This document shows, piece by piece, positions 4,573-63,775 of a stretch of 64,000 nucleotides of DNA. Position numbers and translations under genes: made by a program. The stretch covers positions 129,315 to 193,314 of the forward strand of contig DHVG01000013.1 in NCBI GenBank assembly GCA_002412545.1, written 5' to 3'. Every line of letters begins with the position of its first letter. The first letter of the stretch is position 1. This stretch comes from Elusimicrobia bacterium UBA5214. Lineage in GTDB: Bacteria; Elusimicrobiota; UBA5214. Below the pieces are notes generated by a model. The model ran no database searches. It was not told the DNA's origin and was given only the letters and a program-made list of their open reading frames with translations.

Positions 4573-5975
4573 CTTCCAGAAAAATATTTTATGCCTACTC
4601 TAATAAAGTATAAAGTCCGTTTTAAAGGAAATATCATTTTTATATAGTAAAAGATTATTTTAGGTCTTAAATAGAATTGAATCATAATCATTTGTTGAAT
4701 CCTTTTCAATTTCTTTATGGATATTGAATCCGGAGAATATACGGGAATAGCAAGGGAACCTTTTGATAGATGAAGAGAGGAATATTCTATTTTTTTTTCA
4801 CTCTTAAGCTGTTCTGTTATTTCAGAACCGGGTAGGGGGCAAAACAAAGAAAAAGTTGCTCCGACGAGATCCAGTTCTAGTGCAAGTTGTTTGGTTTTCA
4901 TAATGTCCTCAATAGTTTCATCAGGATATCCTAAAATAAAAAAAGCATGAATAGGTAAACTGCATCGCCTTACCAACGATACTTTTTCTCTTATCAAATT
5001 TAGGTTTAATCCTTTCTTCATATTGTTAAGAATCTTTTGAGAGCCGGATTCAATACCAAGAACAATCGAGTGACATCCTGATTTCTTCATCCAAGGCAAT
5101 ATTTCTTCGGTTAATGAATTTAACCTAATTCCGTTGTGCATTGTCCACTTTATTTTTATATTATTCTCAATTAGAGATTTACAAAATTCTATTACAAATG
5201 AAGAGTTGTGTATAAAATTGTCATCGGTAATTAAAATTTCTTCTACTTTAAATTTGTAATATAATAATTTAATTTCTGAGATTACACTCTCAAGGGAACG
5301 CGAACGCATTTTTCTCCCTGATATTTTATAACCGACACAGAAAGTACATCTGTATGGACATCCTCTGGTAACCACTATGGGTGCTGATTTCATTGTTCTT
5401 GCCTGAAAAGTCGGCATAAATTTATGATAAAGTGACAAATCCAAAACTGTTCCCCAAGGAGGATGCCCAAAAGAGTCAACATTCTCATAAAATATTGGTT
5501 CATTGCATATAATTCCTTTTTCTGTCCTATAGATTAAACCTGGTATTTTGTTTGCCCATCCAGTGATATCTTTCTTTGATGTAAGGCAATCTATGAACTT
5601 CGGTACACTAATTTCTCCTTCCCCTTGGAAAGCATAATCAATCCATTTTAATTGGTTTAATACTTCATAGGGAGCTGATGAAGGATGGGGTCCTCCTGCA
5701 AGAGTTATGGTATTCGGCCTGTTTCTTTTTATAATTTCTGATATTTTATCTACTACGGAAACATCGGTAGAAAACATCGTAATTCCTAATACATCGGGAT
5801 CGACTTCGTTAATTCGCTTTATTACCGATTGCATATCCAATCTTTCCGCATGAGCATCAAGAATTACAACCTCATACCCTCTTTTCAATAAAGCAGTAGC
5901 AAGATAACCTAATCCTAAAGGAGGCATTACCCAAAAAGAACTTTTTTTTATGGGGACCAATAGAAAAATACGCAT
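4569..5975 (-). CDS. B12-binding domain radical SAM protein (paralog of 2482..3894)
   Basis: CxxxCxxC motif RGCPYRCTFC and N-terminal B12-binding-like domain; same architecture as the neighbouring gene. Confidence 0.8.
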   Translation of the reverse strand: MRIFLLVPIKKSSFWVMPPLGLGYLATALLKRGYEVVILDAHAERLDMQSVIKRINEVDPDVLGITMFSTDVSVVDKISEIIKRNRPNTITLAGGPHPSSAPYEVLNQLKWIDYAFQGEGEISVPKFIDCLTSKKDITGWANKIPGLIYRTEKGIICNEPIFYENVDSFGHPPWGTVLDLSLYHKFMPTFQARTMKSAPIVVTRGCPYRCTFCVGYKISGRKMRSRSLESVISEIKLLYYKFKVEEILITDDNFIHNSSFVIEFCKSLIENNIKIKWTMHNGIRLNSLTEEILPWMKKSGCHSIVLGIESGSQKILNNMKKGLNLNLIREKVSLVRRCSLPIHAFFILGYPDETIEDIMKTKQLALELDLVGATFSLFCPLPGSEITEQLKSEKKIEYSSLHLSKGSLAIPVYSPDSISIKKLKRIQQMIMIQFYLRPKIIFYYIKMIFPLKRTLYFIRVGIKYFSGR

Positions 5976-7181: not shown

Positions 7182-7890
7182 TTCTATTTTTCTCCTTAGA
7201 ACCGAGGTAGAGATAAATGTAAAATTAATCCCATATTTTAAGTATCTTGCTGACCGTTATTGTCCAAGTTAACAAAGTAACCCCAATATTTGGACAGCAA
7301 GGTGTTTTTGGGAACTAGCAATGAAGATTTAAACTTTAAGTTGTTGATTAATAAATCAAAAAATAACTAAACTCGCCAATATTATTTGTAAATCGGGTAC
7401 AGTAGAAATAGAGGAAACTATTAGTAAAAAGTCGTACCACCCTGTCTATTTTGGAATCTTTTGAGTAAATACGGTGCGGTTTGCTTAAAAATTTCTGTTT
7501 AGAATAAAATCCTCTGTTTACGGTGTTAGCGAATAGATGTCCTTTATTATAAAGTTATAAAATTATCCTTAATTATTATTTTAACAAAAATATTGGGAAA
7601 AAACAAGGTTTTAGGTAGGAATTTAATTCAGAAAACTTGTTAAGACCACTCAAAGATTAGGACATAAGTTAGAATTGGTAATTAAAAGTTAAGGTTCTAT
7701 TTGAAAGAAATAAGCAATGATATTCTTTTCGTTCACTTACAGGCAAAATTTTTGTTTATCCGAATATTTATAGGACAAATTGATAACTGTTATTTTTTTA
7801 TTCTTTTTTCAATTTAATCTCTTTTGAATTAAACTTTATACGTCATTTCAGTACAATCATCTTTTTTGTATCCACAAAACTACGGCTTCA

Positions 7891-7937
7891 CCCTCACCTT
7901 TTTCCTCTCCCCTCGGAGGGAGAGGGTCGGGTGAGGG
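7891..7937. repeat. GC-rich nested inverted repeat (two-stem hairpin) just past the stop of the LamG/T9SS gene
   Basis: Outer stem ccctcacc (7891..7898) pairs with ggtgaggg (7930..7937); inner stem cctctccc (7904..7911) pairs with gggagagg (7918..7925). Strongly GC-rich against an AT-rich background; no U-tract follows on the minus strand. Confidence 0.8.
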
Positions 7938-7945
7938 GCAATCTT

Positions 7946-61183: not shown

Positions 61184-62209
61184 TTAGAATAGTTCTTTGT
61201 TTTTTGGTGGAAGTAGCCCTAAATGACGATAGGCGTTTTCGGTAGCGATACGTCCACGGGCAGTGCGAGAAAGGAAACCGACTTGAATCAGATAAGGTTC
61301 ATAGACATCGGTGAGCGTATCCACTTCTTCGGAAACGGCGACTGCCAAAGTTTCTATCCCGACCGGACCACCGGAAAATTTTTCCATTATCGTCAATAAG
61401 ATTTTTCTATCCATTGAATCCAACCCGGCAGTATCTACTTCTAACGAACTTAACGAATCTTCGGCAATCTTACGGGTAATTATTCCTTGTCCTTTGACTT
61501 CGGCAAAATCACGGATTCTCCGTAAAAGACGGTTGGCTACCCGCGGGGTTGCTCGGGAACGGGAAGCAATAATTTCTGCACCGTCATCTTCAATTTTTAT
61601 CTCTAATAGTTTCGCTGAACGGAGAACAATCTTTTTCAATTCATCAAAGGTATAAAAGTTTAAATGTCCGATAATCCCGAATCTTTCTCTTAAGGGACTG
61701 GTGAGCAGACCGGCACGGGTAGTCGCTCCGACTATGGTAAAACGCGGTAAAGGGAGACGCATATTCCGTGCACTTGCTCCTTCACCAATAATGATGTCTA
61801 ATTTGAACTCTTCCATTGCCGGATATAATGCTTCTTCAACTAAACGATTCAGCCGATGAATTTCGTCAATAAAGAAGACATCACCGTCAGTTAAATTGGA
61901 AAGAATTGCCGCAAGGTCACCGACCCGTTCTAAAGCCGGTCCGGAGGTGGGACGAATATTTACATTTAATTCGTGGGCAATAATGTAGGCAAGAGTGGTT
62001 TTGCCTAATCCGGGAGGACTGTAAAATAAACAATGGTCTAAAGGTTCTTTTCTTTGTTTTGCCGCCTGGATAAAGATACGCAGGTTATCCTTTAATTTAT
62101 CCTGCCCGACAAATTCGTCTAATGTCTTCGGACGCAAGGTAATATCAATTTTTTCTTCTTCCGGAGTAATCTCGGTAGTAAGTATACCCCGCACCTTTTC
62201 ATTCTGCAT
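61184..62209 (-). CDS. ruvB: Holliday junction branch-migration ATPase RuvB
   Basis: AAA+ Walker [12 protein letters not shown], Walker B DEIHRL, sensor regions; 341 aa. Confidence 0.95.
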
Positions 62210-62334
62210 TTTGTTTATTTTCCTTCTTTAGTAGTCTTGACGCTAAGCAAACCCCACACTAATAAAGATGCGGGGTAAGCGGTCTTTCAAAGGTGTTCAC
62301 CTTTAAGGGTTAAGTGATTCCACAAAAATGGCTA

Positions 62335-62444
62335 GGCAATTTGTTGAGGGGTTCCTCTTTGAACGACATCAGAGTTTTTGACGACCTTCGATTTTGGTCA
62401 AAAAATCATAAAGTGAAAAGAGGGTTCCCGAGACAAAAATTGCC
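62335..62444. other. structured element in the unusual 327-bp ruvA-ruvB spacer
   Basis: Closing helix ggcaattt (62335..62342) with aaattgcc (62437..62444); internal hairpin tttttgac...gtcaaaaa (62375..62404); direct repeat gagggGTTCC; separate hairpins aaaggt-gttc-accttt (~62290..62305) and gccgagc-aa-gctcggc (62484..62499). No ORF of 60 aa or more. Confidence 0.45.
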
Positions 62445-62536
62445 TACTCAAAACTCTGCTTTAACAAATTCTATTATTTTTTAGCCGAGCAAGCTCGGCA
62501 ACTACAATTGCGATACAACCTCTTAGATAAAGTTAC

Positions 62537-63145
62537 TTAGCGGTTAAATTTTTTTAATGCCTGAGTAACTAAATCTTCAGCCGATAATTTACTTTTCTGC
62601 TGGCTACTTGCGGCACTAAGCACTTCTTCTACTGCTTCCCGTGCCTGGAATTCCCGGTAACCGAGTGCAACTAAACCAGCAATCGCATCCAGTATTTCTT
62701 TTTCTTCGGTGGCTATTTCTCCCTTTTCTTCAGAAATTATCCATTCTTTAATTTTTTCTTTTAATTCCAGAATAATCTTTTCGGCAGTTTTCTTACCAAT
62801 ACCAGGAATAGTGGTGAGATAAGAGATTTCTTTACTGGAGACGGTTTTTTTAAATCTTACCGGCGGGCAATGGGAGACAACCGAAAGGGCAATCTTCGGA
62901 CCGACATCCGGAACATCTAAAAGATAACCGAAGAGTTGTCTTTCTTCCCGGGTAAAAAAACCGTAAATCTGTTGAATATTTTCCCGCACATGAAAGTAAG
63001 TATAAAGTTTCAATGGTTGATTTATTTTCGGTAATTTTTCGTAAGTAGTCAGCGGGACAAAAATCTGGTAACCAATACCGTTCACGGCTAAAGTAACTTC
63101 TTCTCTACTTTTATCGGCTAAAGTGCCTTCTAAAAAATTATACAT
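62537..63145 (-). CDS. ruvA: Holliday junction DNA helicase RuvA
   Basis: RuvA domain I (GIGYQIFVP), helix-hairpin-helix domain II (LLDVPDVGPKIALSVVS, IPGIGKKTAEKI), C-terminal RuvB-binding domain; 202 aa. Confidence 0.9.
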   Translation of the reverse strand: MYNFLEGTLADKSREEVTLAVNGIGYQIFVPLTTYEKLPKINQPLKLYTYFHVRENIQQIYGFFTREERQLFGYLLDVPDVGPKIALSVVSHCPPVRFKKTVSSKEISYLTTIPGIGKKTAEKIILELKEKIKEWIISEEKGEIATEEKEILDAIAGLVALGYREFQAREAVEEVLSAASSQQKSKLSAEDLVTQALKKFNR

Positions 63146-63152
63146 TTGTTAA

Positions 63153-63677
63153 TCACAAATCTAATTTATTCGCTTGAACTTGTTTATTATATTTTGCGTT
63201 ATAAAGGTGACAGAGGGCTACGGCTAAAGCATCACTGACATCATCCGGTCCCTGAATCTGATTACCGCTAACCGGCAAATTAAGACAGAGTTTTACCATT
63301 TTTAGCACTTGCGATTTTACTGCTCTCCCCTGCCCGGTAAGCGCTTGTTTAACTTGTAAAGGGGTATATTCAAATACCGGAATCCCTGCCTCGGCAGCGG
63401 CAAGCATGATAATTCCTTGACTCTGGCCAACTACAATTGCGGTTTTTACATTCTGAGCAAAAAAAAGTTTCTCCATCACTAAACAGGAAGGTTTATCCTG
63501 CTGAATAATTTTTTTTAATTCAGAATAAATCTTTTTTAATCTCTCCGCTGTAGAACTCTTTGTTTCTGTTTCAATACAACCGTAATTTTGAACTCTTAGC
63601 TCCTTGCTCTTTGCTATTTGCTCTATTGTTCCCCACCCACATCGGGCAATACCCGGGTCTATTCCAAGAATTGTCAT
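63153..63677 (-). CDS. ruvC: crossover junction endodeoxyribonuclease RuvC
   Basis: RNase H-like N-terminus ILGIDPGIARCGWG with catalytic Asp. Track start is TTG at 63686; ATG at 63677..63675 (MTILGIDPG) preferred. Confidence 0.9.
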   Translation of the reverse strand: MTILGIDPGIARCGWGTIEQIAKSKELRVQNYGCIETETKSSTAERLKKIYSELKKIIQQDKPSCLVMEKLFFAQNVKTAIVVGQSQGIIMLAAAEAGIPVFEYTPLQVKQALTGQGRAVKSQVLKMVKLCLNLPVSGNQIQGPDDVSDALAVALCHLYNAKYNKQVQANKLDL

Positions 63678-63685
63678 TTTGTTCA

Positions 63686-63775
63686 ACTTATAACTTATGA
63701 CCTATAACTTATAACTATTAGTTGTTGTATGTTATCGGTTATTGGTCATCGGTTATCAGTCATCAGTTATTAGTC
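63686..63775. repeat. two adjacent heptamer arrays filling the ruvC-yebC spacer
   Basis: AACTTAT-type x5 (63686..63720) then ATCGGTT-type x6 (63734..63775: atcggtt attggtc atcggtt atcagtc atcagtt attagtc), ending at the yebC stop codon; TGATAC periodicity continues into the yebC 3' end (63779..63792). Confidence 0.85.

Follow-up and report, generated by a model that had tools for sequence, protein, structure and literature searches.

Nested palindromic insertion elements very probably make up the structured DNA that separates ruvA from ruvB in an uncultivated Elusimicrobia lineage

Why ruvA and ruvB should be separated by a long stretch of structured non-coding DNA is the question raised by the ruv locus of Elusimicrobia bacterium UBA5214. 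The locus lies in a 64,000-nt stretch of contig DHVG01000013.1 (assembly GCA_002412545.1; hereafter the window), where the ruv genes are encoded on the minus strand (Table 1). A preliminary description of this DNA had reported a gap of 327 nt between ruvA and ruvB and had proposed that it holds a small RNA, a regulatory element controlling ruvB, or the scar of an excised insertion. The extent of the gap was borne out to the nucleotide, and all helices and repeats named in that description were found in it: a long-range helix, an inner hairpin flanked by A/U, a direct repeat containing GGTTCC, and a perfect hairpin with GCCGAGC stems. An additional 14-nt inverted repeat, absent from that description, was also found, the second arm of which falls within ruvB codons 5-9. 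The minus strand of the spacer contains no ORF of at least 25 aa. The single ORF in the spacer lies on the plus strand (62314-62484, 56 aa, GTG start) and gave no Pfam match.

Table 1. Features of the ruvA-ruvB locus, in positions of the window.
Feature	Position	Strand	Details
ruvB	61184-62209	minus	341 aa
14-nt inverted repeat	62264-62277 and 62185-62198		TACCCCGCATCTTT / AAAGGTGCGGGGTA
B unit	62186-62278	minus	93 nt; TTACCCCGC...GCGGGGT; arms are the 14-nt inverted repeat
Present ruvB translation start, within B unit	62207-62228	minus	SD AAGAAGGA at 62221-62228; ATG at 62207-62209
ruvA-ruvB spacer	62210-62536	minus	327 nt
Relic of earlier ruvA/ruvB junction	62279-62310	minus	ACCCTTAAAGGTGAACACCTTTGAAAGACCGC
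MITE-like unit	62311-62539	+	229 nt, TA to TA; canonical orientation, antisense to ruvAB
Terminal inverted repeat	62311-62331	+	TAAGTGATTCCACAAAAATGG; 2 mismatches in 17 to consensus TAAGTAATTTCACAAAA
Nested palindromic module A	62333-62446	+	114 nt; TA-GGCAATTT...AAATTGCC-TA
Long-range helix	62333-62342 and 62437-62446		TAGGCAATTT / AAATTGCCTA; 10/10 complementary
Direct repeat containing GGTTCC	within arms 62340-62360 and 62417-62437		GAGGGGTTCC / GAGGGTTCCC
Inner A/U-flanked hairpin	62372-62382 and 62397-62407		GAGTTTTTGAC / GTCAAAAAATC
Segment interrupting the second terminal repeat	62482-62525	.	44 nt; TA at start and end; holds the GCCGAGC hairpin
Perfect hairpin	62484-62499		GCCGAGC-AA-GCTCGGC
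Degenerate second terminal repeat	62526-62539	+	GATAAAGTTACTTA; last three bases are the ruvA stop
ruvA	62537-63145	minus	202 aa; Pfam RuvA_N, HHH_5, RuvA_C
ruvC	63153-63686	minus

The folding of the spacer was compared with that of shuffled sequences. The minus strand had a predicted folding energy of -87 kcal/mol (z -3.1) and the plus strand one of -84 kcal/mol (z -2.9), and on each strand none of 100 shuffles folded as well, so the structure of the spacer goes beyond chance. That both strands fold equally well is a hint of palindromic DNA and not of a strand-specific RNA. The Rfam scan that the preliminary description had suggested yielded no relevant family: there was no match at the gathering threshold in the whole window, only noise at E values up to 10 in the region 61900-62900, and no match to the element in canonical copies of the repeat family described below. 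A c-di-GMP-I riboswitch was detected in contig L099 (2131-2223, 79.5 bits), about 500 nt from a copy of this family, which by chance provided the Rfam scans of this lineage with a positive control. When the spacer was compared by BLAST with collections of plasmids and phages, the outcome was nothing or a 29-nt chance match. No intrinsic terminator was predicted in a terminator scan. The GCCGAGC hairpin was considered as a terminator in either direction and rejected, because none was predicted there and the T-run is on the wrong side: an A-run follows the hairpin on the sense strand, and the T-run precedes it on the other strand.

The junction was then compared among relatives retrieved by protein look-up, as the nearest species-representative genome has a RuvB identity of only 70% and is too distant for spacer comparison. 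That ruvA and ruvB normally adjoin or overlap, as the preliminary description had it, was confirmed: the genes overlap (TAATG or ATGA) in L083 (88.4% nucleotide identity to the window in ruvB; CGCTAATGAAAG), L094 (79%), L084-86 (78%), and L087 (68%). Spacers were found in L090 (93.5%, 124 nt), L092 (91.9%, 376 nt), L089 (91.4%, 319 nt), and L093 (88.7%, 143 nt), and the sequences of these four filled junctions are largely unrelated. Relatives with one shared spacing and unconserved sequence, the pattern that the preliminary description had set against its own proposal, were not seen; the spacings were 0, 124, 143, 319, and 376 nt, the inserts were mostly unrelated, and at the orthologous junction the sequence is not conserved. 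Because the more distant relatives show the overlap, we take it as the ancestral state. On that reading, the junction was filled independently and differently in sibling lineages.

Other observations were made at this junction and near it. In the UBA4817 genome (Elusimicrobia), ruvA and ruvB are separated by a type II toxin-antitoxin pair (Pfam Unstab_antitox and ParE_toxin; L001 2045-2595), which together with flanking non-coding sequence makes up a gap of ~950 nt. This case, too, indicates that insertions are tolerated at the junction. In a long intergenic region of the window (7890-7941), a GC-rich palindromic repeat, CACCCTCACC...CCTCTCCCCTCGGAGGGAGAGG...GGTGAGGGG, shares 85% identity over 52 nt with the insert in the ruvA-ruvB junction of L093; it is also present in L088, L094, L102, and L111 and thus represents a third dispersed repeat family of the lineage. 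Between ruvC and the upstream gene (yebC in the syntenic L081), the window carries two short tandem arrays with 7-nt units at 63685-63775, AACTTAT repeated 4.6 times and GTTATCG repeated 5.7 times (alternatively, a 14-nt unit repeated three times).

The central palindrome of the spacer is common to the window and L092, where it has the opposite orientation, with a 20-nt exact block GTTCCCGAGACAAAAATTGC. A 20-mer of module A matched at least 20 stretches on 17 metagenome contigs from three samples, a count that is a lower bound, since none of the matches came from the window's own JGI sample. All of these matches run into the same end, ...AAATTGCTTRATTATTTTTGTGAAATTACTTA / ...TTRATTATTTTTGTGAAATTACTTA, followed by unrelated flanks, and at its opposite end the repeat carries the inverted complement TAAGTAATTTCACAAAATAATA. 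With the 17-nt consensus TAAGTAATTTCACAAAA as the family terminal repeat, a fuzzy search delimited at least 16 bounded copies of 154-469 nt, in which the ends correspond to this consensus and its complement with 0-2 mismatches. Nearly all copies have TA at both termini, two have one variant end, and the flanks diverge directly after the terminal TA. In the 64-kb window, self-BLAST and fuzzy search revealed no second copy of the terminal repeat. The family is modular, with module A itself bounded by TA and other palindromic cassettes located at hairpin tips.

Filled and empty sites were compared for the copy in L092. The filled site reads AAATT[TA]GGTAATTTCAC...GAAATTACT[TA]ACCGCTAA and the corresponding empty site of relatives AAATTTAACCGCTAA; in short form, AAATT[TA]GG...ACT[TA]ACCGC is opposed to AAATTTAACCGC in L083 and L090. 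As far as the sequences go, this comparison shows a duplication of TA, which is formally indistinguishable from an element that simply ends in TA. When the flanks were joined, CTAG (6 loci) or TTAA (5 loci) was rebuilt at 11 of the 16 distinct loci. IS630 itself prefers CTAG, and judged by these motifs the target sites of the family look like those of IS630-type elements. The copies occupy otherwise tiny gaps, almost always between co-directional genes, and in about half of them, the window copy included, the terminal TAAGTAA overlaps the stop codon of the upstream gene. Relative to the flanking genes, seven copies have the same and seven the opposite orientation. The copy in L100 lies between ordinary housekeeping genes (a radical SAM enzyme and an alanine-racemase-fold protein); these two genes were looked at, and no transposase with matching ends was found.

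The family thus combines small size and a lack of coding capacity, as in the 229-nt window unit and the 154-469-nt copies, with terminal inverted repeats and dispersed copies in unrelated flanks, as observed in metagenome contigs. IS630/Tc1-mariner elements duplicate a TA target (PMC2170065). In their sequence organization, the copies are built like a MITE family of this TA-duplicating IS630/Tc1-mariner type. Literature search gave no description of such a MITE family for Elusimicrobia, only one passing mention of both terms, and this TA-flanked modular family of an uncultivated Elusimicrobia lineage appears to be undescribed.

The unit in the window departs from the canonical copies in several respects. 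A match to the terminal repeat as good as that of its first end is expected by chance ~0.01 times in 64 kb, by our estimate. Module A, with the ends TA-AGCAATTT...AAATTGCT-TA, holds the long-range helix, the inner hairpin, and the GGTTCC direct repeat, and shares 92-93% identity over 111 nt with copies at the unrelated locus L095/L113. It is followed by a linker and by the inner part of the second repeat (TATTATTTTTT), which is interrupted by the 44-nt segment; no other copy of this segment was found. The sense-strand sequence of the second terminal repeat is TAAGTAACTTTATC; its first 13 nt agree exactly with the beginning of the L089 spacer, not with the canonical consensus. At its very end, the ruvA stop TAA (62537-62539) doubles as the terminal TA(A) of the inserted element. 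Relative to the neighboring repeat, module A is inverted in comparison with all 20 other copies. The L089-like end and the inverted module A suggest that the unit may be a hybrid of two related elements or a rearranged copy, and several insertion histories fit the data, involving a hybrid of L089-type and canonical ends, the ACCCT-TA remnant described below, and an inversion of module A. An exact 14-nt match, AACTACAATTGCGA on the plus strand, connects ruvC coding sequence (63428-63441) with that part of the spacer (62500-62513; E ~0.07) in which the 44-nt segment with the GCCGAGC hairpin lies. This match could be due to chance or to locally templated filler DNA.

Adjacent to the MITE-like unit lies a relic of an earlier ruvA/ruvB junction, the homologous counterpart of which in L092 is the ruvB start region still in use there (CCCTTAAAGGGGAATACCTTTGAAAGAACG). 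Three components of the former start can be recognized in the relic: the SD AAAGGTG (within 62295-62304), the TTG initiation codon (62288-62290), and the opening four codons of the former ruvB frame, TTG AAA GAC CGC. At ~62304-62310, a few bases (ACCCT-TA) resemble the remnant of an excised insertion, which is one possible origin for them. The relic is followed by the 93-nt B unit, which is a clean insertion in ruvB codon 5 (after the fourth or fifth codon). Deletion of the 93 nt restores TTG AAA GAC CGC TTA CTT ACT ACC GAG ATT ACT CCG GAA, the N-terminus of the relatives; with the unit in place, the old frame meets TAG after 15 codons. The first eight RuvB codons (MQNEKVRG) consist of B unit sequence. 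This start is present only in the window, and the ten nearest homologues begin with MK[DE]R[IL]LT. From the reading frames, we conclude that the old ruvB start is disabled and that the predicted new start lies within the B unit. Both the minimum-free-energy and the centroid folds form a 14-bp helix around the SD and the ATG (z -2.3), with a loop of ~65 nt.

The B unit belongs to a second repeat family. Its ends are conserved inverted repeats of 11-14 nt (ACCCCGCACCTTT / AAAGGTGCGGGGT), and the interiors are unrelated. From start to start, the repeats lie 70-76 nt apart in most copies; in two copies the distance is 85-89 nt. B units were found nested inside one MITE subfamily and as solo units at five other loci (~257 kb examined); fuzzy search detected no second copy of the B repeat in the 64-kb window. 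One of the solo units, 102 nt long, forms a clean insertion near the 3' terminus of ruvB in L090 and L092 (3482-3583 in both), where no target duplication was seen; it alters the C-terminus of RuvB to HLGLPRPSQNTLPFT and its length to 339 aa, compared with 337 aa. Both clean insertions can be accommodated by one boundary only, TTACCCCGC...GCGGGGT. At 93 and 102 nt, both are multiples of three, which may be a coincidence with only two cases.

A solo B-type unit was also observed ~35 nt upstream of the yebC start in L107 (3105-3190, equal to L092 24-104), at the head of the row yebC-ruvC-ruvA-ruvB, and its interior contains a perfect TATAAT. Downstream of ruvB in L090, at a distance of 1.4 kb, a gene (4944-5894) has a predicted product that joins an IS200-like Y1 transposase domain to a DnaA C-terminal helix-turn-helix. 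Inverted repeats of 22 nt, GGGGTCGTGTCTTGACATTTGA, border the gene and bear no relation to the MITE and B elements. For this gene, the one available case, an association between the B unit and a RAYT/Y1 transposase was rejected, since the repeat that flanks the Y1_Tnp gene is not the B repeat.

In sequence terms, the spacer is made of inserted repeat elements. We consider it highly probable that it is mobile-DNA debris, in which nested non-coding palindromic insertions accumulated at an originally overlapping ruvA-stop/ruvB-start junction (TAATG). Three layers can be proposed. The layer next to ruvA (62311-62539) would be a copy, possibly a hybrid, of the TA-flanked MITE family with terminal inverted repeats of ~20 nt, most likely mobilized in trans by an IS630/Tc1-mariner-type transposase that duplicates the TA target, and the palindromic module A within it would give rise to the long-range helix. 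The middle layer (62279-62310) would be the stranded remnant of the previous ruvB SD and TTG start. The third layer (62186-62278) would be a hairpin-ended element of the second repeat family, 93 nt long and with no detectable target duplication, the insertion of which presumably put an in-frame stop behind the old ruvB start. The gene would have survived because the B interior supplies an SD and an in-frame ATG, so that RuvB now begins with MQNEKVRG- instead of MKDR-. The elements are probably fixed passengers today. As no terminator is predicted, ruvA and ruvB are likely still co-transcribed through the insert; their translational coupling would be lost, and ruvB would be translated from a start in the ~65-nt loop of the predicted 14-bp helix. 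Incidental effects on mRNA stability, decay, or translation may arise from this helix and from the module-A hairpin of 114 nt.

Several other explanations were weighed against mobile-DNA debris. Regions built of repeats are badly handled by assemblers, and a repeat-induced misjoin in this metagenome-assembled genome could have brought unrelated sequences together. However, the spacer is 100% identical in L081 and L082, two independent assemblies (Logan run SRR1573578 and JGI sample 3300014686), the identity with the window extends across 366 nt, and the ruvA and ruvB reading frames are intact. The spacer is therefore no assembly artefact, and a chimera deserves practically no credence. A dedicated cis-regulatory RNA or an sRNA gene would explain why the spacer folds significantly more stably than its shuffles, and the position between two genes of one operon would suit it. 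Such an RNA is nevertheless very unlikely, given that Rfam offered no match even at E values up to 10, that the plus strand folds equally well, that the element is absent from the orthologous junction of relatives, and that the same sequences occur as dispersed repeats with terminal inverted repeats in both orientations. With no Rfam match, no conservation at the orthologous junction, and a repeat dispersed in both orientations, neither the small RNA nor the regulatory element controlling ruvB that had been proposed in the preliminary description finds support. Its third proposal, the scar of an excised insertion, was right about an origin by insertion, but the insertions still appear to be resident as nested mobile-element copies. 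Module A (62333-62446) might also be imagined as an invertible DNA switch, flipping by site-specific recombination at its perfect 10-bp inverted repeats and bearing a promoter-like TTGACG-17-AAAAAT on the plus strand (62378-62406), and its inversion against the adjacent terminal repeat, compared with all 20 other copies, would be in keeping with this. We find such a switch scarcely credible: all three assemblies of the species have one orientation and all other copies the other, the interior is itself a near-palindrome, a feature typical of MITEs and not of invertons, the promoter-like sequence matches poorly (9/12) and has a -35 hexamer that belongs to the hairpin apex, and no recombinase was identified.

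A regulatory role acquired after insertion is unlikely on the whole. The B hairpin, the module-A hairpin, or both would in this case now control ruvB expression, either by limiting translation initiation or through RNase III/E processing that uncouples the levels of ruvA and ruvB, as in Correia/ERIC elements. The 14-bp helix that both folds close around the SD and the ATG (z -2.3) is consistent with this, as are a G-U pair of the helix on the sense strand that becomes an A-C mismatch on the other strand, the fixation of an insert identical in three assemblies, and the precedent of the Correia and ERIC elements (PMC2229807). Against it, the helix arms are the conserved terminal repeats of the B family, which are present wherever B occurs, sibling lineages have no spacer or unrelated inserts, the MITE family shows no orientation bias (7:7), and the single sequence variant of the locus offers no covariation to read. 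The location of B units at ruvB codon 5 in the window, at the ruvB 3' end in L090 and L092, and ~35 nt upstream of yebC would fit a bolder proposal, which we regard as distinctly improbable. According to it, the B unit would represent an undescribed mobile class, hairpin-ended and without target duplication, inserting at the extreme 5' or 3' ends of genes in multiple-of-three lengths and with variable interiors able to carry translation signals; at this locus, it would have been taken over as a structured region for translation initiation, by which the output of RuvB is set independently of that of RuvA.

Taken as mobile-DNA debris, the elements can be compared with known systems. Correia/NEMIS elements of Neisseria, RUP of S. 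pneumoniae (linked to IS630-Spn1), and ERIC of enterobacteria are likewise small and non-coding, with terminal inverted repeats and 5'-TA-3' termini (PMC2229807). The MITE family described here can further be likened to them in that they would form long stem-loops in transcripts, lie in intergenic regions, are co-transcribed, and have size variants that arise through internal segments (PMC2229807). Correia and ERIC elements affect translation or mRNA decay (PMC2229807). The likeness is one of layout, with no sequence similarity seen, and the present family is larger and more modular (154-469 nt, with palindromes nested in palindromes). It differs further in its location between co-directional genes, with an end that overlaps the upstream stop in about half of the copies, and in its host, an uncultivated Elusimicrobia lineage.

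The nearest analogue of the 93-nt B unit is the REPIN, an inverted REP doublet mobilized by RAYT transposases. As REPINs are outlined in PMC3337134, both have two short conserved inverted repeats around a less-conserved spacer of near-constant length. The B unit shows no evident target duplication in this comparison. Unlike in REPINs, its 13-nt repeat ACCCCGCACCTTT is not itself a palindrome and has no internal self-complementarity, the one Y1 transposase gene encountered (L090) has a different repeat, GGGGTCGTGTCTTGACATTTGA, on either side, and the unit inserts inside coding ends. Rickettsia palindromic elements and other coding-fused MITEs are palindromes inserted in frame and translated within a protein (PMC2229807). 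The clean B insertions of 93 and 102 nt are multiples of three as well, but the B unit in ruvB adds no internal peptide; it breaks the old frame with a stop and replaces the translation start.

For this lineage, the analysis removes a false lead, as a well-folding, ORF-free stretch in a DNA-repair operon is accounted for by mobile-element debris and not by a riboswitch or sRNA. Although elements of this kind are known, those of the spacer apparently represent a new family. More unusual are the details, namely the recurrent and different insertions at one junction, the nested modular architecture, and the rebuilt start of a gene. A single gene junction that has been struck repeatedly and differently in sibling lineages provides a natural marker for strain typing. 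The locus is also a clean example of a gene in which the start codon, the ribosome-binding site, and the first eight residues have been replaced by the sequence of an inserted element, and the B unit that supplied them is the least understood and most interesting piece.
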